32,000 nt of DNA from Candidatus Methanoperedens sp. (GCA_027460535.1 JAPZAR010000031.1:1-32000); one strand, 5' to 3'. Counted from the first letter of the stretch, positions 4,037 to 22,969 are shown. Notes: generated by a model from the letters alone, not told the origin. Numbers and translations: made by a program.

Positions 4037-4198
4037 AATCTCTTTTAATGATTTTTTGTAATACTATATATTTCCATTGGATAAATAAGGTTAATTGATG
4101 GAATAGGCGTGTTGCGTGCCAATGTATCAGCCGTTGCTTTTTAGTACCAATTAAACCTAATCTTTAGCCACAGAGTAATGAATTTATTGACTCATTAA

Positions 4199-4508
4199 AA
4201 GATATGGATCCATATTATCCAAAAGAAATACCTTCGAATGCACACTTCAAAAGAAACACAAAAATATCTTGAAACAGTTCCACAAAGATTTTCAATTTGT
4301 TTTTACTCCTAAACACGTTTCGCAGCTAAACGTTATTGAGAATTTATTCAGTAAAATGACAGGAAGCTTTTTGAGAGGAATTAGAGTAATTTCAAAAGAT
4401 GAATTAACCGAACGTATTTGTCAGTATTTTGATGAATTGAACGAAAGGCCTGTTTTTTCAAATGGAAATTATAAATGGATGGGATGCCTGGCGCGATTGA
4501 ATCATTAG
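4199..4508 (+). pseudogene. IS630-family transposase relic (C-terminal about 100 aa, internally frameshifted)
   Basis: MHTSKETQKYLETVPQRF (frame 2, from 4238) joins after a frameshift to FQFVFTPKHVSQLNVIENLFSKM...ELTERICQYFDELNERPV. This matches the conserved DDE-transposase tail (H.s..v..yl...f.f.P.h.S.LN.IE..fs). No N-terminal part is present. Confidence 0.6.
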
Positions 4509-4596
4509 AGTATTAATTTGGAGTCGCTATACCAGTCGTCCACATTTAGTGCGCAGTCCACATTCAAGCCATTGATCAAATTCCTAAAAATCGTAA

Positions 4597-5418: not shown

Positions 5419-5544
5419 ATTTCACAAATATTTCTATATTTTTTCCTTAATTTGAAAGTCATTTGAGTATTTCTACACCGCAGACAATCGATACGCACTT
5501 TTGTCACCAACCCAATTTTTCTATTATCATCAATGTATGTATCT

Positions 5545-5606
5545 ACTATTTAAATTTTTTGAATCAAATTCTGAATAAAATTCAGAAATAAAAATTGAAA
5601 ATAAGA
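5545..5606 (+). repeat. Conserved AT-rich intergenic element, copy 1 (short form)
   Basis: actatttaaa TATA-like box followed by ttttgaatcaaattctgaataaaattcagaaataaaaattgaaaataag. Homologous to the copies at 6605 and 7576. Confidence 0.7.
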
Positions 5607-5943
5607 TAGTTGAGAAGTTGAAGCTTGAAGAAAAGACACTCGTAAATGCCTGAAAAATATAAAGGAATGAAGCCAAATGTATTTATTTTCCTGCTTGATT
5701 AATAAAAACTATGAATCCGCCTCTGTAGATAACTTAGAGAATATATATCTTAATTGCTTCAATAAGTACCTGATGTGAAATCCACAACAATCAGATACTG
5801 ATAGTGACAGTGGAAAAATGATACACATCCTTATCCTCGCTTTGCCCGGAAATAGCTTCGACACCTGCCAGTATAAGAAGAGTCCAGCGATGAAGAATAG
5901 AGTCAATCTGTTCATACTCAAGCCTGTAAGAATCCAGTGGTTA

Positions 5944-6252
5944 CTATTTTATCACGGCGCCAGATTCTTCATACATGATTCTTTCTTTCTCTAGTTTGAG
6001 TTCTTCCTCCCTGCGCGCAATGGCTTTCATAGCCTCAGTTGGTTTTACAACGACCGTGATCCTGTTCTTCCTGTCCTTCATAGATACCACAAGCCCGTAG
6101 GCCAGAAGTACAACGACAGCCACTGGAATAAGGAACAGCCATCCCAGTACGAAAGCCATAAAAACTCCAGCTATCAAAGAAGTTGTGTACTTTGCCCATC
6201 TGGGCATCTTCCATTTTTCCCTGTTGAATTCGTCCATGTTGCATTTACTCAT
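5944..6252 (-). CDS. Small membrane protein (2 TM), unknown function
   Basis: 102-aa ORF with a central hydrophobic hairpin and a charged C-terminal helix. Its start overlaps the stop of the upstream ORF by 4 bp (ATGA). Confidence 0.45.
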   Translation of the reverse strand: MSKCNMDEFNREKWKMPRWAKYTTSLIAGVFMAFVLGWLFLIPVAVVVLLAYGLVVSMKDRKNRITVVVKPTEAMKAIARREEELKLEKERIMYEESGAVIK

Positions 6253-6500
6253 ATCGATGTCCTCCTTTTCTCGAAAAACAACTTATATATCAAAATCACT
6301 ATCAAGATTAACGGGATGCCAGGAGACACCCACAAAACAAAAGCAATGAACGCCTCTGCCGGGTAATAATAAGCAGCTAACATAACAGCACCAGCTACTG
6401 CAGCGGCTGTAACATATTTTAATCTTTTATCCACGAGTTGCTCCCTTACGGCACCTGCAATATTCGTATCATCACCTCGCAATATATTATATCGGCCCAT
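6249..6500 (-). CDS. Small membrane protein (2 TM), unknown function
   Basis: 83-aa ORF, translationally coupled to 5944..6252. Confidence 0.45.
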   Translation of the reverse strand: MGRYNILRGDDTNIAGAVREQLVDKRLKYVTAAAVAGAVMLAAYYYPAEAFIAFVLWVSPGIPLILIVILIYKLFFEKRRTSI

Positions 6501-6604
6501 GCGTAAGCATAATCACACAGGCTGTTGATTTTTCGTCATATGAATGGGCGTTAGCCTCTTATGTCTCGTTCTTCATTTTTCATAATTATAATAATTACCA
6601 TATT

Positions 6605-6732
6605 AACTATTTAAACATACCATGTTTCAATTTTTGAACCAAATTCTGAAAAATAAATGGTTATATTGTGCACAAAATCATTATAATTATAATAATGATG
6701 ACTGCATACGCATTGGAATTAGTATTTCTTAC
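6605..6732 (+). repeat. Conserved AT-rich intergenic element, copy 2 (upstream of the proteolipid gene)
   Basis: actatttaaa, then ttcaatttttgaaccaaattctgaaaaataaatggttatatt ... ataatgatga..tacgcattggaattagtatttcttac. Aligns with copy 3 over about 110-130 nt. Confidence 0.75.
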
Positions 6733-6760
6733 AAAACCAAAGACAAAAGGAGGAAAGTAA

Positions 6761-6976
6761 ATGGTAGGAGATTTAGCAATAATCGGAGCGGGAGTAGCAT
6801 TTGCTGGTGGCGCAATTGGCGCAGGATTAGCAGAACAGACGATAGGAGCAGCGGCAATCGGAGCCATGGCAGAAGATGAAAAATTCTTTAGCAAAGGTCT
6901 CATAATGACTGTAATTCCTGAAACCATCGCGATCTTCGGACTCGTGATTGCCCTGATCGTATTATTTGTGAATTAA
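6761..6976 (+). CDS. atpK: A/V-type ATP synthase subunit K (c-ring proteolipid)-like protein, single hairpin, not in an ATPase operon
   Basis: The 71-aa sequence GAGLAEQTIGAAAIGAMAEDEKFFSKGLIMTVIPETIAIFGLVIAL carries the Gly/Ala-rich TM1 and the PET ion-binding Glu motif of archaeal K subunits. A GGAGG-like RBS lies upstream. Confidence 0.7.
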   Translation: MVGDLAIIGAGVAFAGGAIGAGLAEQTIGAAAIGAMAEDEKFFSKGLIMTVIPETIAIFGLVIALIVLFVN

Positions 6977-6989
6977 GGAGGTGACAACC

Positions 6990-7103
6990 ATGATAGAAAT
7001 GATACTTCTTATAACTGTATCCCTTGCTGCAATATACATCATAGCATTCGTAGCGATTGTATTGAAAGAAATGAAGCCATACATTGAAGGAAAATACGAG
7101 TAA
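6990..7103 (+). CDS. 37-aa single-pass membrane peptide (below the track cutoff)
   Basis: MIEMILLITVSLAAIYIIAFVAIVLKEMKPYIEGKYE. A strong RBS (taaggaggtga) lies 7 nt upstream, and the ORF starts 13 nt after the proteolipid stop. Confidence 0.5.
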   Translation: MIEMILLITVSLAAIYIIAFVAIVLKEMKPYIEGKYE

Positions 7104-7124
7104 AAATACAAATGGGATATTAAT

Positions 7125-7166
7125 GGAGGACTCTATATTTAATCTCTATTTAAAAATTAGTCCTCC
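7125..7166 (+). terminator. Hairpin after the proteolipid/peptide pair (8-bp stem ggaggact/agtcctcc, AT-rich 26-nt loop)
   Basis: A perfect inverted repeat at 7125-7132 and 7159-7166. The functional assignment is a guess. Confidence 0.25.
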
Positions 7167-7184
7167 TGCTCTTGTATAATTTAC

Positions 7185-7520
7185 ATGCGTGTAGATAGAT
7201 GTCGCGTGTGCCAGACAGGTACTACTCAGGTCAACGTTGACCTGATCACTGGTATCTTGATTAGACAGGGAGTGCCTTTCATCATTAATCCGTTTGATAC
7301 CTACGCTTTAGAGGAAAGCCTCAGATTCCAAGAAAAATATGGGTTTCGCCTAGCGGTTATTTCAATGGGGCCCCCTAATACTGAGGCAACATTGCGAAAA
7401 GCTCTGGCACTGGGAGCTGACGAAACGATACTCTTGAGCGACCGCTCTTTCGGCGGAGCTGATGCACTGTCTACCAGTCTGGTTCTTGAATAAGCAATAA
7501 AGAAGCTTTTGTCCAGAAGG
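7185..7520 (+). pseudogene. etfB: Electron-transfer flavoprotein beta subunit (EtfB) N-terminal fragment
   Basis: GILIRQGVPFIINPFDTYALEESLRFQEKYG..VISMGPPNTEATLRKALALGADETILLSDR.FGGADALSTS matches the EtfB N-terminus. An in-frame TAA sits at 7491-7493, after which homology (AIKKL) briefly continues. The N-terminal codons look frameshifted. About 60 percent of the gene is missing, and the fragment ends at repeat copy 3. Confidence 0.7.
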
Positions 7521-7575
7521 AAGAGGTGGGTATTGTAGTTTGCTTCCATTTTTGAAAATATTCCAATGTCTGTTA

Positions 7576-7711
7576 TTTTCAATTTTTGAACCAAATTCTG
7601 AAATAAATTGAGAAATAAAATTTGAAAAATGAATGGTTATATTATTTTCCAACTCATTATTCTGAGCATAATGATTAGAACTACTTACGCATTGGAACTG
7701 GTGTTTCTGAC
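7576..7711 (+). repeat. Conserved AT-rich intergenic element, copy 3 (long form)
   Basis: ttcaatttttgaaccaaattctgaaataaattgagaaataaaatttgaaaaatgaatggttatatt...ataatgatta..ttacgcattggaactggtgtttctgac. Confidence 0.75.
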
Positions 7712-7912
7712 ATTTATAGCAGCCAGCAATATCATAGCGTATATTCAGAAAAGATTCACTACTGACAGAACCGAGTCAGGAAGCGCAAAAAGTTTCTGAT
7801 AAATCCGGAGGTCTGATATTATGTGTAAATATCCAAAGATTGATTGTCATCTCCTCATAAACAAAAATGTGGAGATGTCCGTGAGGAATAAATAAATTAA
7901 GAGGTGAATTGA

Positions 7913-8197
7913 ATGGAATTTAAAGAAATAGATGTACCAGAGGATTCCGTCCAGCAAATTAATTATGAAGGGTCATTTGCTAACGTCAACCTTGATGGGT
8001 TATACGAAGATACGCTTGAGGATATAGAGAAGAAATTGGGATCAGTTCCTGACTTGATGAAGGGTTTCCCCAAGAGAAGACTTATCCATGAATGGCCTTC
8101 ATGGAAGAATGTTGGGGAGATAGACCTGGAAAGATCAAGATATCTTCTAAGTACCGATGAAATTTTAGAAGAAATGTTGAGCAAAAACCAGGGGTAA
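7913..8197 (+). CDS. Hypothetical acidic protein
   Basis: 94-aa ORF with an RBS (aagaggtgaa) upstream. It has only a weak resemblance to the N-terminal part of CMD/AhpD-like proteins (KKLGSVPDLMK..P..L...W), which is not enough to call. Confidence 0.35.
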   Translation: MEFKEIDVPEDSVQQINYEGSFANVNLDGLYEDTLEDIEKKLGSVPDLMKGFPKRRLIHEWPSWKNVGEIDLERSRYLLSTDEILEEMLSKNQG

Positions 8198-8523: not shown

Positions 8524-9609
8524 ATGGTTAAGAAAACTGAAGAAAGAAAAGATATAAAAGAAGAAAAGAAGGATATTTTCAAGACATGGGCTGACAGCTA
8601 CACAGCCGTTTCAAAAATGTGGGAGGATTCCTACATAAAGCTATACAAGCCCTGGCTCGAATCCACAGGAGAGCTATTTGAGAAGGCGGCTCTACTCCCG
8701 AAGGATGCTGCACCAAAGCAATATAAGGAATTTTATGACGAATGGGTGAAAACATACCAGAATACCTTTGGTGATTTTTATCCGATCCCGACTCTGAAAT
8801 CCAATAAAGAGACACTCGAGAGACTGCTGATCGGTGCAGAGGAATCGAATAAGCTCTACAGGTCATGGATTGCCAGGTTAGAGGAGAATTCCCAGAAGAC
8901 AAGAGAGGTACTTAAAGGCGAACCTGATCCTGTAAAATATAAAGAAGCCTATGATCTATGGATAAAATCGTACGGAAAAATATTCGATGAGCTTCTTGAA
9001 CTGCCAGCCCGGGAAAATATAAAAAATCTCTTCGAAAATTACACAGGCATACCCGATTTCTACTCTGAGACATTTTTACAGATATCAAAACTATGGAAAA
9101 ATTCGTATGCGAAACTCTACGAGCCGTGGATGGCGTCTGTATCGAAACTTTCTGAGAAAGCAGCAGAAATCTCCAAGGGAGGAGCAAGTCCCGAAGCTTA
9201 TAAGGAATTTTATACACTATGGCAGGTTACATATCAGGAGACCTACGGCAAGTTGTTTGATTTCCGATCGCAGCCTTCAAAGGAAGTATTTGAGAATTTC
9301 GCATTGAGTGCAAACATTTATCTGAACCTTTACAAGTCCTGGATAGCTGCACTTGAAAACCTGTCTGAAAAGGCTGAGGAGCTATCAAAACGAACTGCTG
9401 ATCCAGAGGCGTCTAAAGAATTTTATAATTTATGGGTAAGGATGTATGAAAAGGCTTTTGACAGCTTCTTTGAGGACACTCCTGCGGTCGGACCAATGAA
9501 AGAGATTCTGGAGCCCGTAAAGAATGCAGCTAAGATATATGCAGACACATTTACCAAGATTTCCAAGATGTGGGTGAAATCATATTCAAGCTCTGCAAGC
9601 CAGGCTTAA
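8524..9609 (+). CDS. PHA-granule-associated (phasin-like) protein built from 4-5 tandem PhaE-N-terminal-like modules
   Basis: 361 aa with a recurring W..SY.KLY.PW...........P..YKEFY..W...Y...F motif. The last module (EFYNLWVRMYEKAFDSFFEDTPAVGPM) parallels PhaE EFFDLWLRTYNATMGRLVEMPALGPT. The gene sits immediately upstream of phaE-phaC. Confidence 0.65.
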   Translation: MVKKTEERKDIKEEKKDIFKTWADSYTAVSKMWEDSYIKLYKPWLESTGELFEKAALLPKDAAPKQYKEFYDEWVKTYQNTFGDFYPIPTLKSNKETLERLLIGAEESNKLYRSWIARLEENSQKTREVLKGEPDPVKYKEAYDLWIKSYGKIFDELLELPARENIKNLFENYTGIPDFYSETFLQISKLWKNSYAKLYEPWMASVSKLSEKAAEISKGGASPEAYKEFYTLWQVTYQETYGKLFDFRSQPSKEVFENFALSANIYLNLYKSWIAALENLSEKAEELSKRTADPEASKEFYNLWVRMYEKAFDSFFEDTPAVGPMKEILEPVKNAAKIYADTFTKISKMWVKSYSSSASQA

Positions 9610-9611
9610 AT

Positions 9612-10160
9612 ATGGAAAAATCCAGTTTCGAATCCACCCAGGAATTTTTTGACCTGTGGTTAAGGACATACAATGCCACAATGGGCAGGCTCGTCGAGAT
9701 GCCTGCCCTTGGTCCAACACGTGAGAAATCTGAAAAAATGATGAAGGGTTTCTCTACCTTTATCAACCTTTATACTGCAGGGATGGATTCCAATTTCAAT
9801 TTCCAGAGTATATTTACAGAAGCAATGCGCAGAGTGCGTGAAAAGACTGCAACTGATATGGAAGGGGAAATCACCCCTGAGAAATATAAGGATTTTTACA
9901 AGATCTGGATTGAAACTTACAGCGAGACCTTCAGGGAATTCCTGAAATCAGGTCATTTTGCGTCGGACATGGGGAAATTGAATTCGTATTTAATAGAATT
10001 TCAAAAATACAACAGGGAAATGCTTGAAGAGAATTATCTGAAACCTATGAATCTCCCTACAAAGACGGATATCGACGAGATCAACAAAGAGTTGTATTCT
10101 CTAAAGAAAACAGTAAAAGAACTGACCAGCCAGATCAAAGAACTAAAAGAGAAAAAATAG
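9612..10160 (+). CDS. phaE: Class III PHA synthase subunit PhaE
   Basis: The likely start is the ATG at 9612, 2 nt after the upstream stop; the track start 9570 overlaps the upstream gene. The N-terminal W..TY....G...E.PALGP motif and the C-terminal LPTKTDIDEINKELYSLKK coiled tail are typical of PhaE. The gene is adjacent to phaC. Confidence 0.75.
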   Translation: MEKSSFESTQEFFDLWLRTYNATMGRLVEMPALGPTREKSEKMMKGFSTFINLYTAGMDSNFNFQSIFTEAMRRVREKTATDMEGEITPEKYKDFYKIWIETYSETFREFLKSGHFASDMGKLNSYLIEFQKYNREMLEENYLKPMNLPTKTDIDEINKELYSLKKTVKELTSQIKELKEKK

Positions 10161-10181
10161 GTTTTTGGGTGATGAGATACC

Positions 10182-11339
10182 ATGAACGCACTTAATTTAA
10201 TAGGAGATTATGAGAAATTCAAACATGGGGTGGAACTATTCCTGGAGCCCCCCGATTTTTCGGTTGGAACCACGCCTTCAGAGATAATATTTCGCGAAGA
10301 TAAGATGAAACTTATCCATTATATCCCGATCGTAGAAAAAACATATCCAGTTCCAATACTCATAGTGTACGCACTTGTGAACCGGTACTATATTCTGGAT
10401 CTCCAGCCAGATAAAAGTGTGATAAAGAAGCTGCTGGATGAGGGTTTTGATGTCTATATCATTGATTGGGGGTATCCCTCGGGCGCAGACAGATATCTTA
10501 CAATCGACGATTATGTGATCGGTTATGTAAATAATGCAGTGGATAAGATTCGAGAACGGTCTGGATTGGATAAGATCACGCTGCTCGGTGTATGCCAGGG
10601 AGGAACCTTTTCTGTGATGTACGCTGCACTGCACCCAGAAAAAGTAAAGAACCTGATCACTTTAGTGGCCCCCATAAACTTTGATACAGATAAAGGACTT
10701 CTTCATATCTGGGCAAAGAGCTTAGACGTGGACAAAATCGTGGACTATTATGGAATTGTTCCAGGAGATTTCCTTAATGGGGGATTCTTGCTCACAGACC
10801 CATTCAGGCTTATGATTGACAAGTATGTAGGCCTGCTTGAGAGAATTGAATGTGAACCTGGTGATGCTGCATGCGAGCTTCGCAATGAAGAAACTGTCAG
10901 CAACTTTTTGAGAATGGAAAAATGGATATTCGACAGCCCAGGACAGGCGGGTGAGGCCATCAGGCAGTTCGTCAAAGACTGCTACCAGAAGAACTTGCTC
11001 ATTAAAAACAAGATGGTGATCGATGGAAAGGAGATTAATTTGAAAGAGATCTCCATGCCACTGCTTAATATCATGGCGGAATTTGACCATTTAGTTCCCA
11101 ATGAAGCAAGTAAACCACTGAATGATGCGGTATCAAGTTCTGATAAAGAAATGCTTGTTTTTCCGACAGGGCATATAGGTATATTTGTGGGTTCAAAATC
11201 CCAGAAAGTGGTTTGTCCTAAGATTACTGAGTGGTTAAAACCAAGGTCCCTTGATGGAAGCGAGAAGAGAAGTTTGAACAAATCGAGGAAAAGAAATTCA
11301 AACAAAAAGGAAAGAGTCGCAAGGCAAGGAGGAGTATAA
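10182..11339 (+). CDS. phaC: Class III poly(3-hydroxyalkanoate) synthase catalytic subunit PhaC
   Basis: Alpha/beta hydrolase with the lipase-box variant G-V-C-Q-G-G (Cys codon at 10593-10595). Candidate Asp (EFDHLVP) and His (PTGHIGIFVGS) complete the triad. The size of about 355 aa plus a basic tail fits class III. Confidence 0.85.
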   Translation: MNALNLIGDYEKFKHGVELFLEPPDFSVGTTPSEIIFREDKMKLIHYIPIVEKTYPVPILIVYALVNRYYILDLQPDKSVIKKLLDEGFDVYIIDWGYPSGADRYLTIDDYVIGYVNNAVDKIRERSGLDKITLLGVCQGGTFSVMYAALHPEKVKNLITLVAPINFDTDKGLLHIWAKSLDVDKIVDYYGIVPGDFLNGGFLLTDPFRLMIDKYVGLLERIECEPGDAACELRNEETVSNFLRMEKWIFDSPGQAGEAIRQFVKDCYQKNLLIKNKMVIDGKEINLKEISMPLLNIMAEFDHLVPNEASKPLNDAVSSSDKEMLVFPTGHIGIFVGSKSQKVVCPKITEWLKPRSLDGSEKRSLNKSRKRNSNKKERVARQGGV

Positions 11340-11340
11340 A

Positions 11341-12078
11341 ATGAGACTTGAAAATAAGGTTGCAATTATTACTGGGGCAGGAAGCGGTATTGGTAAAGAG
11401 ACTGCACTCCTGTTTGCAAAAGAAGGAGCTAACGTTGTTGTCGCCGATGTAAATGAAAAGGCTGGTGAGGAGACAGTGGCAGAGATCAAGAAAAATGGAG
11501 AGGCATTTTTTGCTAAACTGGATGTAACCAACAGGGAACAATCAAAACAGATGGTTAAAACTACTCTGGAAAAATATGGTAGAATAGATGTTTTGATAAA
11601 TAATGCAGGCATTGTTCAGGATGCCCTCGTAACAAAAATGACAGAGGAACAGTGGGACAGGGTTATTAATATCAATCTTAAAGGGCCTTTTAATTGTATC
11701 CAGGCTGTGGTTGAAGCTATGATCAATCAAGGAAGTGGTGCAATTATCAATACATCTTCCATCGTCGGACTGAATGGCAATGTCGGGCAGACCAACTATG
11801 CTTCAACCAAAGCCGGTCTAATTGGCATGACAAAGACCCTGGCAAAGGAACTTGGGAAAAAGGGGATAAGGGTCAATGCAGTGGCACCTGGATTTATAAT
11901 GACTCCAATGACCTCAAATGTACCTGAAAAAATACTTGAAATGATGAGAGAAAAAACTCCACTGCGCAGGCTGGGTGAACCAAAAGATGTTGCACATGCA
12001 TATTTATATCTTGCTTCAGAAGAGGCGAGGTTTGTTACCGGTGCGGTGCTTTGCGTTGATGGAGGACTCATAATATAG
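11341..12078 (+). CDS. fabG: Short-chain dehydrogenase/reductase, FabG/PhaB-like (candidate acetoacetyl-CoA reductase)
   Basis: TGAGSGIG Rossmann motif, NNAG, and a S...Y..SK catalytic set. The start lies 1 nt after the phaC stop. Confidence 0.8.
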   Translation: MRLENKVAIITGAGSGIGKETALLFAKEGANVVVADVNEKAGEETVAEIKKNGEAFFAKLDVTNREQSKQMVKTTLEKYGRIDVLINNAGIVQDALVTKMTEEQWDRVININLKGPFNCIQAVVEAMINQGSGAIINTSSIVGLNGNVGQTNYASTKAGLIGMTKTLAKELGKKGIRVNAVAPGFIMTPMTSNVPEKILEMMREKTPLRRLGEPKDVAHAYLYLASEEARFVTGAVLCVDGGLII

Positions 12079-12087
12079 GTGAGAAGT

Positions 12088-13266
12088 ATGAATAATGTAG
12101 TTATTGTATCGGCAACAAGAGCCGCAGTCGGGAAATTCGGGGGAATTCTTAAGGATTTTAGCCCAGGACAGCTTGGTTCTGTTGTATTGAAAGATGCCTT
12201 GAAAAGGGGTAATGTTGAATCAAATGACGTTGATGAGGTAATCCTGGGAAATGTTCTTTCAGCAGGTCATGGTCAGAATGTGGCAAGGCAGGCTGCAATC
12301 GGAGCGGGGATTCCAAAAGAGATACCCTCCTATTGCGTGAACAAAGTATGCGGCTCGGGTTTGAAGTCAGTCGTTCTGGGGGCACAATCTATCATGCTCG
12401 GTGATGCAGATGTTGTTCTGGCAGGCGGCGTCGAGTCCATGTCCATGGCTCCGTATGCGCTGAAAAAAAACCGCTGGGGAGCAAAGATGGGAAACGATGA
12501 AGTTGTGGATTTGATGATATATGATGGGCTGTGGGATATTTTCAACAATTACCATATGGGTATAACAGCAGAGAACGTAGCGGAAAAATATAATGTTACA
12601 CGGGAAGAACAGGATGAATTCTCGGCACAAAGCCAGAATAAAGCAGAGGCTGCTATCAAGGCAGGCAAGTTTAAAGAGGAGATTATTCCAGTAGAAGTTC
12701 CCCAGCCAAAAGGCGAGCCTGTGTTCTTTGATACAGATGAGTTTCCCAGATTCGGCACAACGAAAGAGATACTTGCAAAATTAAAACCTGCATTTAAAAA
12801 GAACGGGACAGTAACTGCGGGGAACGCATCAGGAATTAACGATGGAGCCGCTGCGGTTCTTTTGATGTCTGAAGAAAAGGCAAAAGATAAAGGACTTGAG
12901 CCTCTGGCGACTATCAAAAGCTACGGGTTAGGCGGCGTGCCTCCGGAAATAATGGGCATTGGGCCTATTGATGCAAGTAAAAAAGCTCTACAGCGTGCCA
13001 ATATCTCCGCAGGTGAGCTTGACCTGATAGAACTCAATGAAGCCTTTGCAGCGCAGAGCATCGCTGTTATCAGAGAACTGGGTTTTAATCCAGAACATGT
13101 TAACGTTAACGGCGGCGCTATAGCCCTGGGGCATCCCATAGGAGCAAGCGGTGCAAGGATATTGGTTACTCTTCTCTATGAATTAAGGAGAAGGAAAGGC
13201 ACATACGGCCTTGCTGCACTCTGTATCGGAGGTGGGCAGGGTATTGCTATGGTGGTAAAGAGGTGA
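12088..13266 (+). CDS. phaA: Acetyl-CoA acetyltransferase (bacterial-type thiolase II, PhaA/AtoB-like)
   Basis: VVIVSATR...[11 protein letters not shown] (nucleophilic Cys), [31 protein letters not shown]. The ATG at 12088 is preferred; a GTG at 12079 is the alternative. Confidence 0.9.
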
Positions 13267-13270
13267 TATT

Positions 13271-14125
13271 ATGAACATGAATGGAAAAAAATTGGAAGGA
13301 AAAGTTGCTCTGGTCACTGGAGGCTCAAGAGGAATCGGGCGGGCGATTGCCTTGCGGCTTGCGGAAGACGGCGCTGACGTTGTTATCAACTATCAGAACA
13401 CAAGAGAGCATGCCGAGAAGGTATCAAAGCTGATTGACCAGATTGGCATGGCAGATGAACTTGAAAAATTAACCATAAAGATAAACCACATGGATAATAA
13501 AGAGCAAGCAAAGGAAATATCAAAGTTAATAGAGGCTATCGGAAGGCACTCTTATGTATACCAGGCAAACGTCAGTAATCTTGAGCAGGTAAACAGGATG
13601 CGGGACGAAGTGATCGGGCAGTTCGGGAAAATAGACATTCTGGTTAATAACGCAGGAATAGTCAGGGATAAATCTTTTGTCAAAATGACTCCTGATATGT
13701 GGGGAGATGTTATGTCGGTGAACCTGGATGGAACCTTCTACTGCACCAAAGCATTCATAGAAGGAATGCTGGAAAGGAAATATGGCAGGATTGTGAACAT
13801 TTCATCGGTTGTGGGAAGAATGGGCAATTTCGGCCAGGCGAACTATACAGCTTCAAAGGCAGGCATGATAGGTCTTACAAAAGCACTGGCAAAGGAGTTT
13901 GCTGGCAAGGGTATAACTGTAAATGCAATAGCCCCGGGATTTATAGATACTGATATGGTAAAAGGGGTTCCTGATGAAATAATCGAAAAGATTCTTGCCA
14001 AAATACCACTTGGAAGACTGGGGAAGGCATCCGAGGTCGCAGGTGCGGTGGCCTACTTGGCATCACTGGACGGGGATTACATAACAGGTCAGGTGATAGA
14101 TATAAATGGGGGACTTTATATCTGA
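13271..14125 (+). CDS. fabG: Second FabG/PhaB-like SDR reductase, with an internal insertion of about 33 aa
   Basis: TGGSRGIG, NNAG, S...Y.ASK and PGFIDTDM motifs. The extra segment lies between beta2 and beta3 (see finding). Confidence 0.8.
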   Translation: MNMNGKKLEGKVALVTGGSRGIGRAIALRLAEDGADVVINYQNTREHAEKVSKLIDQIGMADELEKLTIKINHMDNKEQAKEISKLIEAIGRHSYVYQANVSNLEQVNRMRDEVIGQFGKIDILVNNAGIVRDKSFVKMTPDMWGDVMSVNLDGTFYCTKAFIEGMLERKYGRIVNISSVVGRMGNFGQANYTASKAGMIGLTKALAKEFAGKGITVNAIAPGFIDTDMVKGVPDEIIEKILAKIPLGRLGKASEVAGAVAYLASLDGDYITGQVIDINGGLYI

Positions 14126-14326: not shown

Positions 14327-14399
14327 CGTCCGGACCGGGATTTGAACCCGGGTCGGGGGCTCGACAGGCCCTCATGATAGGCCGCTACACTATCCGGAC
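14327..14399 (-). tRNA. tRNA-Asp (anticodon GUC)
   Basis: Reverse complement GTCCGGATAGTGTAGCGGCCTATCATGAGGGCCTGTCGAGCCCCCGACCCGGGTTCAAATCCCGGTCCGGACG. Anticodon loop CTGTCGA. 73 nt. Confidence 0.85.
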
Positions 14400-14522: not shown

Positions 14523-14596
14523 GGGCTCGTGGTCTAGTCGGCTATGACGTCGCTCTCACACAGCGGAGATCCTGAGTTCGATTCTCAGCGGGCCCA
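14523..14596 (+). tRNA. tRNA-Val (anticodon CAC)
   Basis: GGGCTCGTGGTCTAGTCGGCTATGACGTCGCTCTCACACAGCGGAGATCCTGAGTTCGATTCTCAGCGGGCCCA. Anticodon loop CTCACAC. 74 nt. Confidence 0.85.
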
Positions 14597-14603
14597 TACA
14601 AGT

Positions 14604-17600
14604 TCATTTTCGAACCAGCTTTGAAATCGAGTATAATCTCCACAAAGGCTTTGAATAGAAAAGGTATGCTGCCGTTAATCCGGTTATTAAAGCAAGTATG
14701 ACTGAACCAAGTACGTTGTGGATGACCTTCTTTATGTCGGATACCATTGATTTCTCAGTTATCGTAAAATTTACAGGATAGAACTCCCCCCAATTATTGT
14801 TCCTCTCCATAGCATGTATATAAATTACATGTGCTCCGACTGAAATATTAGTTGTATTTATCTCTGCTGTAACATCCTCTACCTGCGAGTCATATGTACC
14901 ATTTATCAGGCCAAGCGGTGTTCCATTCCCGGAAGTGCCCATTCTATCCATAAAATACTCGGCTGCCCTTATTTTCATCTTATAACCTGCCATTGCCCTC
15001 GCAGTCAGTTTTAACTTTTCGCCTTTGACAGCTTCGATATTATCCAGAGCCGCCTCCCTTATCACCGGTGAAACCAGAAATCTTTTTAGATTGTGTGATT
15101 GCAGGATGTGACAGGATTCGCAATTCTGTTCCAGCGCATGTGGCTCGTCGCTGATATTTATTGCCCCAAAATTTGGATTTTCCTGATAGATGTGACAGGA
15201 TTTGCAAGATCTTGGTGTAGTGTATGTTGGAACATGCGACTGCGGCTCTTGGCTGTCCAAAGTGTGGCATGCCCAGCATGCTTTATCAATCGAATCCGAC
15301 AAAAGGGTATCAATGGATGCATTTCCGTTCAATCTGTCGTGCTTTCCTAATCTTGATGAAACTGCATCAAAATTAGGAATATTAAGTTTTCTTGATGTAT
15401 CATGGCAGTTAACGCAATCAGCCCACATCCTTTGATCGGTATACAGGTTCGGTATGTGAAGATTTTCCGGTACTTTCCCCACTATGAAGGTATCATTGGG
15501 AAAAAGCCAGCTGCTATTATACCCAAAAGCTGTGGTGTTGGCGGTAGTTTTCATTATCGAGGGTGAAATCGCCAGCACGTCCTTAAGTATTACGAAATTT
15601 GGATTTGCCTGAACAACTGACGTAAGGTTTGCGCTGAAAATTGTTACATTGATATCTTGGTATCCTTTATATCTGATTGGACGGGTATAACTAAACTCAG
15701 AACCGCTGGTAACTGCCCAATCCTCGACAACGCTATTGTTAATCATTAAAGCCAGCAATGCCTGTTTGCTATCAGTACTAACGTCATTAAGTTTCAGAGA
15801 AATGTTCTCTCCAAGGTTCCACGTTTCCCCCACCTTTAGATATTTCTGTAACGAGGGAGAGGGAAGGAATGTCCCAAAATCGGTGTTGATCTGGTTTAAA
15901 ACATAATCGTCGCCATTATAGTATATCTTACTTTTATTTTCAGATATGAAATCAACGAATACATTGGTGAAATATATGATATCATTATTGGGGTTTTCTT
16001 CTAGATCTCTGTCAATAACCAGATACCGTTGTTTTTCTGGAGAATACCGGTACAGATGACAGGCAAAGCACGCAGTGCTGTTGGTTTCTGCATGGACTCT
16101 AGCTGTCCTGAATCCACTGAACTGAATGAGGCTTTGATTTGCGCCTTTGAATATTGATGTTATATTCAGGATAATAATAGGCATCTTGAACGTTCCATTG
16201 TCTATAGTAGTATATTCCTCATAGTTATATTGAGAGCCAACACCTATTGAGAATTCATCTACAATACTATAGTTCTTTAAAAGCTGAATTAAAGCCTCAC
16301 TCCTTTCTGAGGAGATCTCCACCACTTTCAAAGAATATCCATTACCGAGATATACGCTCTCTCCCTCAAAAGCTGTTAGTTTATTTCGTTCTTTTTCAAG
16401 TTCAATAAGCGAGGTTGTATTCTTGTATATTAAAGTTGCATTGCCCCAGGCTTCACTATTGTTTTTAACCAGATGGCAATAGGTGCACTTGAAAGAATCA
16501 ATTAAATTATCTGTCGACGCGTAATGTGATGTAAGAGCCAGATCCGTATTATTATCCGTTATCACCAGACTGTTTAGATGGCAGATTTGGCATTGTACTG
16601 AAGTGGTTATATTATAATTTGTAGCATTATTTTGATTACCATTTAGGCTTGCATTCTGGAAATGCGAATAAACCATAGGCTCTTGATAGGGGGATTGTGA
16701 GAGTGAATGGCAGTCATTGTTGTTACAGTTTTTTGGAGTTTTGTAATTTAGTGGATGCCCACCTGCAGGCTGTGCATTCTCACTTCCATCCCCATCTCCA
16801 TGGCAAGCCCAGCAGCGGAGATTGTTGCTGTTTAAAGAAGTTATAGCATTTGCATTCAGAGTCCTATGTACCGCTTTATCGTCATTGGCGGCTGAAAAAT
16901 TAACATGGTATGGCGCAGCTCCTCCAATATCGTGACAGCTAATGCAATTTTTGTTACCCCCTAAACCCATGGTACTATCGTGGAAAGTTGGAGGAGTTCC
17001 GCCGCCGCGCACATGGCAGCCATAGCATTCTGTGCTGGCTGTAAATGGAGTATGGTTCAAGGCAACAAAGGAGATTCTGGGATCATTTGGTGCCCCCCAT
17101 ATACTATTTCCACTGTTATTGTAATGGCAAAAGGCGCAATCCTTTGATTGGATAAGGTTATTGGTTGTTCCATAATGAGATACCCGGTCAAATATGTTAA
17201 AATAAGAGGCATTCGTATCTACACTGTTGCTATGGCAGGTAGTACAGCTCGTGGATATGTTAATGTCTTTACCATTTTGTATGTGCTCGCTAACCAAAGG
17301 TGCATTGAAAAGATTGCTGACATGACAATCTGAACACATTTTTACCAGGCTTAGATCTATTGGATGGATTTTTGGAGGAGTGCCATCCCAGTGGCAGGCA
17401 TAACAAGCATAGTTCAAATCATTTACATTGTTCACTCGTCCATGCATACTGTTATTTAAGGAAGTAAGATTTACGTATGGCATCCCCGCCAAAATAGTCC
17501 CATGACAATCAATGCAGTTTTCAAACCCTGCCATTGCGGCAGGCATCAGGTTTATAGTGATAAATAGGAGCAGACTGAAAATTATAGATCTGTTATTTAT

Positions 17601-17609
17601 GACATGCAT
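14604..17609 (-). CDS. Membrane-anchored multiheme c-type cytochrome (16 heme motifs) with two inserted S-layer-like beta domains
   Basis: N-terminal signal peptide. By eye I count 15 CxxCH plus 1 Cx4CH (CNNNDCH). Two paralogous non-heme domains lie at about aa 405-505 and 585-700. There is a C-terminal TM helix (VLGSVILALITGLTAAYLFY) with a basic tail. Confidence 0.9.
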   Translation of the reverse strand: MHVINNRSIIFSLLLFITINLMPAAMAGFENCIDCHGTILAGMPYVNLTSLNNSMHGRVNNVNDLNYACYACHWDGTPPKIHPIDLSLVKMCSDCHVSNLFNAPLVSEHIQNGKDINISTSCTTCHSNSVDTNASYFNIFDRVSHYGTTNNLIQSKDCAFCHYNNSGNSIWGAPNDPRISFVALNHTPFTASTECYGCHVRGGGTPPTFHDSTMGLGGNKNCISCHDIGGAAPYHVNFSAANDDKAVHRTLNANAITSLNSNNLRCWACHGDGDGSENAQPAGGHPLNYKTPKNCNNNDCHSLSQSPYQEPMVYSHFQNASLNGNQNNATNYNITTSVQCQICHLNSLVITDNNTDLALTSHYASTDNLIDSFKCTYCHLVKNNSEAWGNATLIYKNTTSLIELEKERNKLTAFEGESVYLGNGYSLKVVEISSERSEALIQLLKNYSIVDEFSIGVGSQYNYEEYTTIDNGTFKMPIIILNITSIFKGANQSLIQFSGFRTARVHAETNSTACFACHLYRYSPEKQRYLVIDRDLEENPNNDIIYFTNVFVDFISENKSKIYYNGDDYVLNQINTDFGTFLPSPSLQKYLKVGETWNLGENISLKLNDVSTDSKQALLALMINNSVVEDWAVTSGSEFSYTRPIRYKGYQDINVTIFSANLTSVVQANPNFVILKDVLAISPSIMKTTANTTAFGYNSSWLFPNDTFIVGKVPENLHIPNLYTDQRMWADCVNCHDTSRKLNIPNFDAVSSRLGKHDRLNGNASIDTLLSDSIDKACWACHTLDSQEPQSHVPTYTTPRSCKSCHIYQENPNFGAINISDEPHALEQNCESCHILQSHNLKRFLVSPVIREAALDNIEAVKGEKLKLTARAMAGYKMKIRAAEYFMDRMGTSGNGTPLGLINGTYDSQVEDVTAEINTTNISVGAHVIYIHAMERNNNWGEFYPVNFTITEKSMVSDIKKVIHNVLGSVILALITGLTAAYLFYSKPLWRLYSISKLVRK

Positions 17610-17688: not shown

Positions 17689-18753
17689 TCACCTCTTCCG
17701 TCCGAACATATAACCTGCCAAAAGCAATATCATTGCCATGGCGGCATTAAATCCCGGTGTCTTCTTTACAGGTATTGTCACTGCAGTTGGCCCTGGTTTT
17801 TGTGGTGTTTCTTCCCCCGCTACAGGTGTTTCAGCCGGTACCACCACGCCCTTCAAGCTTGTTATTGCAAATGGCGAGAAGGAATTTGTCTTTGCCTCAA
17901 AGTGAGTGAAAAGCTCATCTTTTCCTTTGGATCCAGTTTCCAGGAGTTCCCATTTTGTTCCATCCCATCTTTCAAGGGCAACATCGGTATCTTTGAATTC
18001 GTTCGATATGAGCCATGAATTCTCGACCTTGAATCTTACAGTAGCTTCTTTTATGTTCTTTGGAACTGCGAAGCCAGATGTTCCGACCCAGATATTGACG
18101 TATCTATAAACGGTCCCAGGTGCGCTTGTTTTTACAAGTGTTGACGTATCTTTTAGAAGTTCGATCTGAGTATTTATCAACCCTGCACTGACAGCCCCAA
18201 TGATTTCGAGCTGATAGACTGGGAGTATTGGAGTAGTGAAATTGTATCTTGTCGGCAGATCCTTGGCTATGAACTCTTCTTTGGACTCTTTAGCCTGGAT
18301 ATTTGAGTAATTCTCACCTGATGTCCCGCCGCCACCGCCGCCGCCTGATGGGCCACCACCACCGCCACCTGATGGACCACTGCCGCTGCTTCCTGTTGAA
18401 AGTTGTAGATTTTCCTCCTGGTCATCTAAAGCTGCTCTTGGTCCGGTCCATGAAGCCGACTTCCCGGTAGCAGTTGCTGTTATCGTCATGGAATCGCCTG
18501 CATTGACACTGACTGGCAGGTTTGCGAGCTGGAATACATAATATCCGCTGGCAATACCTCCAGTTGTCTGAGTCACATTTGCGGTGGTAGTACTATTTGA
18601 ACCTCCAGAAACTGAAAGCACTACTGTCACACCATTTATGGGCGTGCCATCGGTATCAGTTACCCGGCCGAATACAGTAAATGGGTTCCCATCCGATGCC
18701 ATTACAGGTATTATTGCTAACAGGAAAAAAATTGAGAAGAGAATTTTTTTCAT
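17689..18753 (-). CDS. PGF-pre-PGF domain surface protein with a PGF-CTERM archaeosortase sorting signal
   Basis: The likely start is MKKILFSIFFLLAIIPVMA at 18753, 10 nt after the upstream cytochrome stop; the track start 18810 overlaps that gene. Domain order is CarboxypepD_reg-like domain, poly-Gly linker, ENYSNI...YRYVNIW...FSPFAI (PGF-pre-PGF pattern), a Pro/Thr linker, then TPGF plus TM plus GRKR at the C-terminus. Confidence 0.8.
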   Translation of the reverse strand: MKKILFSIFFLLAIIPVMASDGNPFTVFGRVTDTDGTPINGVTVVLSVSGGSNSTTTANVTQTTGGIASGYYVFQLANLPVSVNAGDSMTITATATGKSASWTGPRAALDDQEENLQLSTGSSGSGPSGGGGGGPSGGGGGGGTSGENYSNIQAKESKEEFIAKDLPTRYNFTTPILPVYQLEIIGAVSAGLINTQIELLKDTSTLVKTSAPGTVYRYVNIWVGTSGFAVPKNIKEATVRFKVENSWLISNEFKDTDVALERWDGTKWELLETGSKGKDELFTHFEAKTNSFSPFAITSLKGVVVPAETPVAGEETPQKPGPTAVTIPVKKTPGFNAAMAMILLLAGYMFGRKR

Positions 18754-18763
18754 AATATCCTCT

Positions 18764-21700
18764 CTATTTTGTTCCCACAAATGTGTACGTGTTTCCATTG
18801 GTGGTACCATTCCCTTTTATAAAGTAAGGTTTGTAGCCTGCCATGGTGAAATTGGTTCCTGAATAAAATCCGACACCTCCACTCGGCACTATGATCTGGT
18901 AACTGACCCATATCTGGTTGGTTGAATCCCATTTGAGCACTTTTGAGACGCCAGGAATACCTGTTGAAGATGTATACAGGAGATTTCCTGCATACAACGT
19001 CGGGTTCGGGTTAAGCCAAAGCACGATGAGATTATATTCTGATACCAGTGTGTCGGTAGTGTAGTATGTGGTGCCGCCGCTTGTCAAATTCGGGGCGATC
19101 GATCCATTAAAAACCGACCTTGCACCGTGGCATTTGTTACAATCTATAGTCTTACTGATATTATGGAACGTCCAATCTGTAGCTGTACTGGTTCCTCTGT
19201 AAGTTGTCCATTTATTGGTGCTTTGATTCCTGTAGACACCACCTTTGACTTTTCCTGTACTCACATTAACCACATAGTCTGTACTATTCCTTACAAAAGT
19301 ATCGTCATGACATGCATCGCATGTTACATTCCCGTGGCTTGAATATTCCCTGAAGTTAGAGGTAGTGTGCTCGGATGTTGCTACATGGCATGCTTCGCAA
19401 CCTGTTTTAGTTGTGGCAATGTTATTGACCTCGAACGTATGTTCTGAACCATTATTGATGGTTGAATTCATATGGCAGTCAGCACATGTGAAACCCAGGG
19501 AAGTTTTATGGGATCCGTCATAATAAATATCACGGTCAGAGATGTGATGAGAACTTCCGTTGTGGCATTTCTCGCACAACTCCGTAACATTCCCCACTGT
19601 ATCATAGACAGGCGACCCGGCTGAACTGCTTGAGGTGGCATTGTAAAATGCAATGTATATCGGTGATGTGCCATTACCACTATATGTATCGTTGTGGAGG
19701 TTATGACAAACCCTGCACTGGACACCTTGGTTATTTGATGTGTTATAACGCGCGCTGTTTGACTGATTATACATCGGAGGTGAATGACATTTTAAGCAGT
19801 AGCCGCTGTAATATGTTCCATGAAGACTTGATTGAGCATGGCCGCTCTGGTTCCATGCTATGGTTTCATTCTCTATCTTAGGTTGTCCTCCACCAGTTCC
19901 ATTGTGGCATGTCAAAGTACATGTATAATACGGGAACATGCCTTTACCAACACCGCCATTGGTGCTGAGGGGAATACCTGTAAGATTGTAGTTATAGAAG
20001 TTGTACTCAACAGTCAGATTATGGTCATGGGTGTATAGCGATGAGTTAAGGGCGAACTGCTGCGTTGTGTTCGCAAAGTGGCACTGCGTGCAGTCTGCAT
20101 AATTCTGCCCGTACCCGTGATTTCCATGGCTTTCACTAAGGTTAACACCTTCAACGTGACAATTCCTGCATGAGTTGCTTTCATTCACGATGTAACCTGT
20201 GTAACCATTATGCTGTGTATCATAGCCAGCATGGCAATCTGTGCAGTTTGGTGCAGCGACATTCATTGTCTGGTTATGATTTGAGTTGTTGACTGCACTG
20301 GCGTATGAAGAGTGGCATTTGACGCAACCAATGTCTCCAAATGTCGGCGCTAATAATGAGCTCGTTACAGCGGACTTGGTACCATGACACTTATCACAAC
20401 TAACATCCTTACTTATATTGTGCAATGGCCATGTTGTTGGAGCTGCAGACCCATCTTTGTAGCTGGATATTAATCCTGTTGCTGTGTCATTATAGAGACC
20501 ATAAATTATTTTGACTCCCGTACTGTTAAGGCCGACTGCATAGCCAGTTGCATTCCTTGCAACTGTCTTGTCGTGACAGGCTTCGCATGTAACTTTACCT
20601 GTATGGTTCGCTGTGAACTGGAATGTATGGTCTCCTGATTTATGGCACACTTCACACCCAGTTACACCTGTTGTTAAGTTCGTGACTTCGAACATATGTG
20701 ATTGGTAATTGAATCTTGCACCACTAGTAGTATTCAAATGACAATCAGCACAATCAAAGCCAACTTGGGTCTTGTGAGTTCCTGCAAACTTGCTGTCGTG
20801 GCCATCTCCATAATGGCATTTTTCACACAAAACTGTAGCATTGGCAACCGTGTCATAGATTGTGTAACCCGCAAGAGAACTTAAAGTTGCGTTATAGAAC
20901 GCCAGTATTCCTGTCCCTGGACTACTAAACGATCTATTGTGGAGGTTATGACATACCCTGCAATTAATACCCTGCCAATCGGCTACTGGAATAAGTGTAC
21001 CCGATGATGCACTCGCATTATAATTCAGAGGCGACTTGCATTTGGCACAGGAATTCTTCTGGTCAGTGGGGGGTTCTACCAATGACTGGGCATGCGCACT
21101 CTGGACCCAGGTTTGTGATGCATTGTCGACTTTTACATTGCTACCATCGTGATGATGGCATGATGCCGCATCGCATGAATAGTATGGAAACGTTCCTACG
21201 CCCACACCACCATTACTCTTTAGAGGCATCTGTATCGTTCCTGTTAGATTGTATTGATAGAAGTTACGGATAATTGTCAGATTGTGGTCATGTACATAGA
21301 GTGACGCATTCAAACTGAAAGACGTGTTCATATTTGCAAAGTGACACATCGTACAATCATCGGTTGATGTATGTTTTTCATCTTTGGTTTGATGGCACCC
21401 TGAATTCCTGCACGTGTTACTTTCGTTCACTGTAAAACCCTTGGCTCCTGTTGTATGACCGTAGCTGGGTACATATCCTACGTGACAGTCAATACATGCA
21501 GGCGCGCTTGCATTCAGGGTCTGGTTATGCTTTGAGGCGTTATATGCAGTGGCGTATGTAGGATGGCAATCTGCACATACGAGGCCAGTCGTAATCGTGC
21601 CGTTAAATACAGAGGTTGCATTGTGGCATTTGCTGCAATCTACACTCTTGGTTATATTATGCAGGGGCCATGTTTTAGGTTTACCTCTGTCCAATACATA

Positions 21701-22969
21701 AGTAGTCCAATTACTGGTCGGGGTCGGTTTCCACAGACCGTAATTACCGTCACTTGATACGGAATAGTTCGTAGCATTTACTGTTGTAAAAGTTTGATCA
21801 TGGCATGCTACGCATTCAACTTTACCTGTATGCATTGACGTGAACTGGAATGTATGGTCTTCTGATTTATGGCACACTTCACAGCCGGTCACATTTGAGG
21901 TAGTGTTCTTGACCTCGAATGTATGGAACTGCGTTAAATCACTTTCGATTGATCTGTTCGCATGGCAACTGGCACAGGTGAAATTCGCACCAGCTGGGTC
22001 TTTGTGAATTCCTGCAAACTTACTGTCATGAGAGGTAGTTGTGTGGCATTTCTCGCACAATTCGGTAGCATTGTGAACCTGTACATAGACCGGGTAGCCC
22101 GCACGAGAGCTTAGAGTTCCATTATAGAACGCTAGCGGTTCTCCATTCACCGGGCTGCTATAAGAAACATTATGCATGTCATGGCATACCCTGCACTGGA
22201 TGCCCTGCCAGTCGGCCGCTGCCACAGGTGCGCTCTGGTTGGCACTTACGTTATAGTTGGGCGGTGACTTGCATCTGGCACATGACATCGTCTCACTGCC
22301 GGTATATGATTGTGCATGTTTACTCTGGTTCCAGCCGATGGTTATATTTTCCTTACTTTTGCTTGTATGGCAGGTCAGAGTACAGGTATAGTACGGGAAC
22401 ATGCCCTTGCCTACATGGCCGTCGGCGCTGAGGGGCATTCCTAAAAGATTGTAATTATAAAAATTGTATTCAACGGTGAAATTATGGTCATGTTGGTAAT
22501 AAGTATGAGAACTAGAAAGAGGAAACACTTTAGTAGTATTGGCGAAATGGCATTTTGTGCAGTCTGCGGGACTAGCTGCATTGCCGGTATGGGTGTTTGT
22601 ATCAACAGGACGCGATCCACTGGTTGCATGGCATCCAGGTTGACCATTTTGTAACGTATTACAGGTTGTCACTGTGACCTGGTATCCGATATAACCGCTA
22701 ACTGTATGCGTGCTAGTATCATATGCCCCCCTGTGGCAAATAAGACAGGCAGTTGTTTGGGAGTTATCTATATTATCATGTTGCCTCGGTAAAAAAGTTA
22801 TCGCGCTGTTGGAAGCGATGGCTGAAACATATGCAGGATGGCAGGCATTACAAGCATTATTTGTAACATCTTGAGCCGTATAGGTTGCAATCGCTTCCGG
22901 TATGGCTACCGCCACAGCCAATAAAATCAAACACATCAATATGCCGTTTCGTTTCATAGTACCCATCAT
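18764..22969 (-). CDS. Giant secreted multiheme c-type cytochrome, 1401 aa, about 36 heme-binding motifs in three 12-heme modules plus a C-terminal non-heme domain
   Basis: Signal peptide (ILMCLILLAVAVAIPEAIA). By eye I count 29 CxxCH, 2 CxxCK, 2 Cx3CH, 2 Cx4CH and 1 Cx9CH. There is no C-terminal TM. Confidence 0.9.
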   Translation of the reverse strand: MMGTMKRNGILMCLILLAVAVAIPEAIATYTAQDVTNNACNACHPAYVSAIASNSAITFLPRQHDNIDNSQTTACLICHRGAYDTSTHTVSGYIGYQVTVTTCNTLQNGQPGCHATSGSRPVDTNTHTGNAASPADCTKCHFANTTKVFPLSSSHTYYQHDHNFTVEYNFYNYNLLGMPLSADGHVGKGMFPYYTCTLTCHTSKSKENITIGWNQSKHAQSYTGSETMSCARCKSPPNYNVSANQSAPVAAADWQGIQCRVCHDMHNVSYSSPVNGEPLAFYNGTLSSRAGYPVYVQVHNATELCEKCHTTTSHDSKFAGIHKDPAGANFTCASCHANRSIESDLTQFHTFEVKNTTSNVTGCEVCHKSEDHTFQFTSMHTGKVECVACHDQTFTTVNATNYSVSSDGNYGLWKPTPTSNWTTYVLDRGKPKTWPLHNITKSVDCSKCHNATSVFNGTITTGLVCADCHPTYATAYNASKHNQTLNASAPACIDCHVGYVPSYGHTTGAKGFTVNESNTCRNSGCHQTKDEKHTSTDDCTMCHFANMNTSFSLNASLYVHDHNLTIIRNFYQYNLTGTIQMPLKSNGGVGVGTFPYYSCDAASCHHHDGSNVKVDNASQTWVQSAHAQSLVEPPTDQKNSCAKCKSPLNYNASASSGTLIPVADWQGINCRVCHNLHNRSFSSPGTGILAFYNATLSSLAGYTIYDTVANATVLCEKCHYGDGHDSKFAGTHKTQVGFDCADCHLNTTSGARFNYQSHMFEVTNLTTGVTGCEVCHKSGDHTFQFTANHTGKVTCEACHDKTVARNATGYAVGLNSTGVKIIYGLYNDTATGLISSYKDGSAAPTTWPLHNISKDVSCDKCHGTKSAVTSSLLAPTFGDIGCVKCHSSYASAVNNSNHNQTMNVAAPNCTDCHAGYDTQHNGYTGYIVNESNSCRNCHVEGVNLSESHGNHGYGQNYADCTQCHFANTTQQFALNSSLYTHDHNLTVEYNFYNYNLTGIPLSTNGGVGKGMFPYYTCTLTCHNGTGGGQPKIENETIAWNQSGHAQSSLHGTYYSGYCLKCHSPPMYNQSNSARYNTSNNQGVQCRVCHNLHNDTYSGNGTSPIYIAFYNATSSSSAGSPVYDTVGNVTELCEKCHNGSSHHISDRDIYYDGSHKTSLGFTCADCHMNSTINNGSEHTFEVNNIATTKTGCEACHVATSEHTTSNFREYSSHGNVTCDACHDDTFVRNSTDYVVNVSTGKVKGGVYRNQSTNKWTTYRGTSTATDWTFHNISKTIDCNKCHGARSVFNGSIAPNLTSGGTTYYTTDTLVSEYNLIVLWLNPNPTLYAGNLLYTSSTGIPGVSKVLKWDSTNQIWVSYQIIVPSGGVGFYSGTNFTMAGYKPYFIKGNGTTNGNTYTFVGTK
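19127..22852 (-). repeat. Intragenic triplication: three paralogous modules of about 417-425 aa (first Cys of each at aa 40, 465 and 882)
   Basis: The motif order is conserved in all three modules. DNA-level identity persists, e.g. tgaactggaatgtatggtct.ctgatttatggcacacttcaca at about 20614 and about 21841 (offset 1227 bp). Confidence 0.9.

Follow-up and report, generated by a model that had tools for sequence, protein, structure and literature searches.

We analysed a stretch of 32,000 nucleotides (nt) of DNA from Candidatus Methanoperedens sp. (GCA_027460535.1 JAPZAR010000031.1:1-32000; hereafter the window), and report here on one of its genes (14604..17609, minus strand), whose open reading frame (ORF) encodes a 1001-amino-acid (aa) cytochrome with 16 heme motifs. 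Two beta domains, A and B, interrupt the heme array of this protein with a single heme motif between them, and both are homologous to the central core of DUF1608 (PF07752), the surface-layer (S-layer) domain of the Methanosarcinales. The ORF, the motif scan, the Pfam matches and the identity to an NCBI entry all place the gene in the type A architecture of the multiheme cytochromes (MHC) of anaerobic methanotrophic archaea (ANME). From these parts we infer that the protein is probably a cell-surface ANME MHC type A cytochrome, that is, an S-layer-fusion electron conduit that would sit at the S-layer and carry electrons through it. The architecture is already published and the gene already annotated, and our reading rediscovers the published model; what is added here is the strictness of the core-heme-core layout (117 of 117 proteins) and the identity of A and B as DUF1608 sub-modules.

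The motif scan located eleven heme motifs in the N-terminal block (aa 32-379; 16473..17516, minus strand, as for all parts of this gene), at aa 32, 69, 92, 122, 158, 195, 222, 266, 295, 340 and 375. Ten of them are CxxCH motifs, and the one at aa 295 (CNNNDCH) is of the CX4CH type. Heme motif 12 (CFACH, aa 514) stands alone between A and B, and four further motifs follow B at aa 732, 778, 802 and 830, in a membrane-proximal block (aa 732-834; 15108..15416). The 32 cysteines of the protein all fall in these motifs, and the heme sites themselves are predicted from the motifs together with conserved histidines. The protein continues with an immunoglobulin-like (Ig-like) beta-sandwich domain (aa 835-960; 14730..15107), modelled by AlphaFold2 (AF2) with a predicted local distance difference test score (pLDDT) of 88.9, and finishes with a C-terminal membrane helix (aa ~966-985; 14655..14714), recognized from hydropathy and direct reading, and a basic tail (SKPLWRLYSISKLVRK). 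Nearly all homologs have a hydrophobic segment at the C-terminus. A first-pass annotation of this DNA, centred on nt 15512-16397 (aa 405-699), had read the same order of eleven motifs, A, CFACH, B, four motifs, a domain of about 110 aa and a transmembrane anchor; our scan agrees with it, the C-terminal domain being about 110-130 aa long. Pfam matched PF07752 along with the cytochrome c7, c3 and MtrC-like families.

The N-terminus carries a probable signal peptide (aa 1-27, MHVINNRSIIFSLLLFITINLMPAAMA; 17529..17609), read from the sequence as a hydrophobic stretch followed by AMA. The ORF product matches, at 100% identity, an NCBI entry that bears the name 'S-layer protein domain-containing protein [Candidatus Methanoperedens sp.]'. 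That model (P0001) has 976 aa, 25 fewer than the ORF, which fits a start at M26; the deposited start is probably too far downstream, and would drop the signal-peptide-like N-terminus.

We compared the two beta domains with each other. BLASTP aligned A and B over 48 aa, with 35% of the positions identical and 73% positive (E=2e-10, a single comparison of the strings quoted in the earlier annotation), and the A and B families could be aligned across ~100 columns. Cross-detection was reciprocal: in most of ~100 homologs, A queries found region B and B queries found A. Judged by these alignments, A and B are true paralogs, as had been proposed. The AF2 model of aa 379-731 (built from 57 sequences) had a mean pLDDT of 75, with the beta domains mostly above 90, and resolved two all-beta domains at aa 401-502 (A; 16104..16409) and aa 588-689 (the core of B, pLDDT >90; 15543..15848), close to the limits estimated earlier (~405-505 and ~585-700). 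B adds strands at aa 527-553 and 707-710. The former are two confident strands (pLDDT ~92; 15951..16031) that follow the heme site and precede the B core, and for which no homology was detectable outside the cytochrome family when the inter-core segment was aligned by hhalign with canonical S-layer proteins (probability 0.1%).

The similarity of A and B to the S-layer domain was evaluated with profiles, structures and profile-profile alignments. At a gathering score of 30 bits, PF07752 matched the whole protein with 64.2 bits in two stretches, and each domain taken alone also scored above this limit: A with 41.7 bits (profile positions 95-201 of 259) and B with 32.9 bits (positions 110-213 of 259). 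Neither of them spans the full length of the profile (~259 positions). The proposal that aa 400-710 would match the S-layer duplication domain was thus borne out for PF07752; for TIGR01567 the match was significant (66.1 bits, E=2.9e-18, two stretches), but fell under the curated cut-off of 121.9 bits, because the cytochrome keeps only the core module of DUF1608. A profile made of 42 A and B sequences matched the sequence of the Methanosarcina acetivorans S-layer protein MA0829 (3u2g) with E=1.1e-11. A structural comparison with MA0829 had also been suggested, and a Foldseek search of the PDB with the AF2 model returned its two structures as the top matches, 3u2g (E=1.5e-6) and 3u2h (E=3.8e-5), both with probability 1.00; the third-best match was at E=2.9e-3. 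The alignment by hhalign with canonical S-layer proteins had a probability of 97.7% (E=2.3e-12) and was colinear, pairing A with the core of repeat 1 and B with the core of repeat 2. We conclude that A and B share ancestry with the core at the centre of DUF1608, the S-layer domain of the Methanosarcinales. The segments before A, between the cores and after B showed no similarity to the canonical S-layer proteins by hhalign.

To see what the cytochrome shares with a complete S-layer protein, we took canonical S-layer proteins from genome contigs. (Word-indexed homolog searches had yielded three short proteins only with the A/B profile, and only fragments with the MA0829 segment.) The canonical Methanosarcina-type proteins of ~670 aa have two PF07752 repeats, at aa 55-297 and 328-571, which score 230-257 bits each and span profile positions 8-259, and they finish in PGF-CTERM. 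The A/B profile found exactly two significant core matches in each of the canonical proteins of 644-764 aa; in the MA0829-type proteins of ~670 aa the cores lie ~272 aa apart, one per repeat. By this comparison, the cytochrome contains one central sub-module of ~100 aa twice, as A and as B, and lacks the rest of DUF1608. The A-B pair appears to resemble the pair of repeat-1 and repeat-2 cores of a canonical S-layer protein, with the ~185 aa of non-core sequence between the canonical cores apparently replaced by a heme-bearing linker of ~90 aa. This two-core reading refines the published description of a single DUF1608 split at the linker. We also considered that the heme linker derives from the 'FAGFFYD' region that precedes the core in DUF1608, as a forced hhalign path had set 'ACFACHLY' against 'NFAGFFYDL'. 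This was rejected, as the inter-core segment aligned alone gave the probability of 0.1% mentioned above.

The core module is also present in non-heme surface proteins (P0144-P0278), where three spacings were seen: ~100 aa, corresponding to core-only arrays, ~190-210 aa, and ~270-290 aa, corresponding to full DUF1608. These regimes are often mixed in one non-heme protein, with lengths of up to 3800 aa. Since the module is found in arrays with a period of ~100 aa in such proteins, it is an autonomous unit, and the Pfam domain PF07752 seems to combine modules that can occur separately.

We then looked at how regularly the single heme motif accompanies the two cores. Homologs with both modules numbered 97, and a profile search across the protein library returned at least 1044 clusters with the core module, the best 150 of which contained 20 more two-module heme proteins (6-73 hemes, up to 3428 aa, the two cores 142-188 aa apart in all 20 representatives). 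The cores are separated by exactly one heme motif in 97/97 homologs and in 20/20 cluster representatives, and hence in all 117. In 96 of the 97 homologs this motif follows the domain-A match at a distance of 2-9 aa, and exactly four heme motifs follow B in 95 of the 97. Ahead of A, these 97 proteins have between 4 and 31 hemes. The conserved unit is therefore module, heme, module, four hemes, Ig-like domain and helix, and the outer heme block, formed here by the eleven N-terminal motifs, is the variable part. The more than 100 homologs retrieved are all from Methanoperedens or ANME-2 and have PF07752 together with cytochrome families.

In an alignment of 57 sequences the invariant positions were H506, E508, C514, C517, H518 and H718. 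The first five make up the inter-domain heme site (aa 506-518, with C514-F-A-C-H518; 16056..16094), in which H506 is 8 aa ahead of heme motif 12. H718 is 14 aa ahead of heme motif 13, and lies in a conserved segment that follows B (aa 690-731; 15417..15542), which has a GYNxSWL motif and in which G696, N698, G711 and P714 are invariant as well. From aa 506 on we counted seven free conserved histidines, for the five hemes 12-16. In the Ig-like domain H839, G875, G925, H927 and W940 are invariant across 54 homologs, and, given the count of seven histidines for five hemes, one of those in this domain might be in contact with heme 16. No Pfam family matched the Ig-like domain, and a specific function for it could not be assigned through structure: Foldseek returned generic Ig-like/E-set folds only (NPC2, the C-terminal domain of sulfite oxidase, FN3, cohesin; best E=1.9e-5).

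The arrangement suggests how the protein might work as a conduit. Once exported, the cytochrome would be held in the cytoplasmic membrane by the C-terminal helix, and the Ig-like domain and the four-heme block would span the space beneath the S-layer. A and B would sit among the DUF1608 subunits of the S-layer, or replace them, which would bring heme 12 to the level of the S-layer, linking the inner four-heme block to the outer eleven-heme block. From the outer block, electrons would in turn reach metal oxides, an electrode or secreted cytochromes, one candidate being the 35-heme product of the same gene cluster (see below). According to published InterPro counts, ANME-2d genomes contain 16-26 IPR006457 (DUF1608) domain matches, which makes a DUF1608-based envelope plausible in these organisms. 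Expression of MHC/S-layer proteins has been reported in Mn-dependent and electrode-dependent growth (PMC7082337, PMC10874420). A more detailed version of the mechanism may be put forward only tentatively: H506 could serve as a distal ligand connecting heme 12 with heme 11, and H718 could connect heme 12 with heme 13, so that hemes 11, 12 and 13 would form an unbroken chain from which the DUF1608 cores project sideways. The A-B pair could then replace one lattice subunit and act as an electrical port of fixed stoichiometry.

Several observations weigh against a conduit embedded in the S-layer. Approximately 170 aa flanking the core in each DUF1608 repeat are missing from the cytochrome, and with these flanks missing and the TIGR01567 score under its cut-off, the protein would lack any lattice contacts that depend on them. 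The heme linker has a pLDDT below 50 in the AF2 model, as is expected when heme is left out of the modelling. The S-layer protein of Methanoperedens itself was not found through the cluster names of ten non-heme representatives, which returned Methanolobus and Methanococcoides. Low expression of such proteins has been reported under some conditions of anaerobic oxidation of methane (PMC9012536, PMC10874420, PMC7082337). Lastly, many non-heme surface proteins carry tandem arrays of the core with a period of ~100 aa, and the core could be a general-purpose surface module.

This last point leads to a different explanation, in which A and B are generic beta-sandwich spacers or adhesion modules that scaffold heme 12 and raise the outer heme block from the membrane of a surface-anchored cytochrome, with no integration into a lattice. 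Their S-layer name would in that case be a sign of common descent alone. The occurrence of the module in at least 1044 clusters and in ~100-aa arrays of non-heme proteins speaks for it, as do the absence from the cytochrome of all DUF1608 sequence outside the core and the TIGR01567 score. However, one would expect the copy number of a simple spacer to differ between proteins, as is seen in the non-heme ones, and the cytochromes always have two cores and one heme between them (117/117). The family is, moreover, confined to lineages in which a DUF1608 envelope is plausible. We therefore consider generic spacers rather unlikely, and retain the S-layer conduit as the probable role of the protein.

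Yet another arrangement follows the description by Chadwick et al. 2022 (PMC9012536): A and B would be subdomains I and II of one DUF1608 domain, with the heme in a flexible linker. Apart from this published statement, the Foldseek alignment could be cited in its favour, as it pairs the model with the single-repeat structure 3u2g over 315 columns (for a target of 274 residues). However, the TM-scores to 3u2g and 3u2h were low (0.30 and 0.37), with about one domain superposed. A and B are also paralogous and occupy the same stretch of the Pfam profile. The joint A/B profile matched 3u2g once only (chain residues 105-202), and likewise each canonical repeat once, and hhalign paired A and B with the cores of successive repeats. 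Taken together, these results make a single split domain very improbable. As for a chance or compositional match, with the heme-free stretches being unrelated linkers, the low identity to MA0829 and a single-sequence phmmer search of the PDB with aa 379-731 (3u2g at E=0.11 only, so that a profile was required) are in line with it, but we give it practically no credence, as it is refuted by the Pfam scores of both domains, by the profile and hhalign matches, and by a top structural match that is specific, the next being ~1000-fold weaker.

The cytochrome gene is the last of a co-directional cluster of three genes, which encode a 35-heme cytochrome, a PGF-pre-PGF protein and the cytochrome described here. 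The first of these (18764..22969, minus strand; ORF, Pfam, motif scan) encodes a secreted 1401-aa multiheme cytochrome that lacks a membrane anchor and is likely to be an extracellular partner of the anchored cytochrome. Its 35 heme motifs include two CxxCK and several CX3-4CH variants, and the protein has 69 N-glycosylation sequons. The middle gene (17689..18810, minus strand), between the two cytochrome genes, encodes a PGF-pre-PGF surface protein (TIGR04213, 153.8 bits) with a Gly-rich linker and a PGF-CTERM-like end. With the listed start, the ORF and the gene upstream of it overlap by 47 nt; the alignment with its ortholog points to M20 (~nt 18753), which is probably the true start. That ortholog (L075 3619-4695) is 59% identical and stands in the same order beside a cytochrome ortholog of 58% identity, the three-gene cluster being conserved in this subfamily. 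The 23-heme paralog of M. nitroreducens (~1180 aa, 36% identical to the cytochrome) stands alone, without the cluster. Two homologs (P0036 and P0040) have ~458 aa after module B and are named PGF-pre-PGF proteins by one source, which suggests a fusion of the cytochrome and PGF-pre-PGF genes.

Elsewhere in the window we found a polyhydroxyalkanoate synthesis operon (8524-14125, plus strand), with two PhaE-like proteins, a class III PhaC-type synthase, a PhaB-like and a second short-chain dehydrogenase, and a PhaA-like thiolase. The Rfam scan of the window returned four tRNA genes only, at 14327-14399 (-), 14523-14596 (+), 1933-2004 (-) and 2038-2112 (-). The cytochrome stop codon is 8 nt away from the end of one of them. 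A region of 2.6 kb (5419-8081) is without long ORFs, and overlaps the 2-kb bin of lowest G+C content (0.33, 4001-6000). Two short ORFs lie in this region. Judged by sequence reading only, the one of 71 aa (6761-6976, +) resembles an ATP synthase proteolipid (c/K subunit), and the one of 102 aa (7185-7493, +) a truncated beta subunit of electron-transfer flavoprotein.

The passage of electrons out of anaerobic methane-oxidising archaea, across a cell wall made of protein, is a key question for the microbiology of the methane cycle and for the use of these organisms in bioelectrochemistry, and S-layer-fusion cytochromes are the leading candidates for this step. The protein described here is no new kind of system. 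With 16 hemes it is a compact representative in which the conserved module is clear, and it could suit structural or heterologous-expression work. Knowing that just one DUF1608 sub-module is kept, and that it is present twice, defines more closely what the modelling of lattice insertion must cover.

The known proteins closest to it are the type A cytochromes described in the section "S-layer conduits" of Chadwick et al. 2022 (PLoS Biol, PMC9012536) as large cytochromes that carry an S-layer domain and have a transmembrane helix at the C-terminus. The authors noted a single heme motif inside the S-layer domain, and proposed electron transfer through the S-layer in an MtrCAB-like role. The idea of an S-layer conduit is common to further papers, earlier and later (PMC10874420, PMC7082337), and PMC10874420 attributes the MHC/S-layer fusion to McGlynn et al. 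2015. All the marks of ANME MHC type A that we tested were present in our protein, namely more than 10 hemes (16), a single heme inside the S-layer region and the C-terminal helix. Those of types B and C were absent, as the first heme is at aa 32 and Pfam matched neither the peptidase-M6-like domain of type B, which lies in a heme-free N-terminal region, nor the pectin-lyase domain of type C. An adjacent CcmF2 is another mark of type B, and we did not detect CcmF among the scanned window ORFs of at least 120 aa. With the type A proteins the cytochrome shares the PF07752/DUF1608 homology inside the heme array and an ANME-2d host, and nothing essential sets it apart from them, although its 16-heme subfamily of ~990 aa is distinct from the 23-heme protein of M. 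nitroreducens.

With MA0829 (3u2g, 3u2h), the major S-layer protein of M. acetivorans, it has in common the central beta-sandwich core of ~100 aa, present twice per protein and in the same order, as well as an extracellular mature protein and a C-terminal anchor. In contrast, the MA0829-type proteins have complete repeats of 259 positions scoring 230-257 bits (33-42 bits for the domains of the cytochrome), a core spacing of ~272 aa (against ~182 aa), no hemes, and a PGF-CTERM end in place of a plain membrane helix.

Archaea of this kind have no outer membrane. In Gram-negative bacteria (Shewanella, Geobacter), the porin-cytochrome conduits of the MtrCAB type have the same proposed job, a heme chain across the outermost layer, to which the function of our cytochrome would be analogous but unrelated. 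The PF22113 profile (MtrC/MtrF domain II/IV) weakly matched its heme blocks (42.3 bits), and library scans of the window proteins found no porin-like protein in the gene cluster; in an MtrCAB-type system a beta-barrel porin sheathes a periplasmic decaheme cytochrome. MtrCAB combines a porin with an outer membrane, whereas the barrier faced by the cytochrome is a protein lattice, and the cytochrome itself carries modules of the lattice type.

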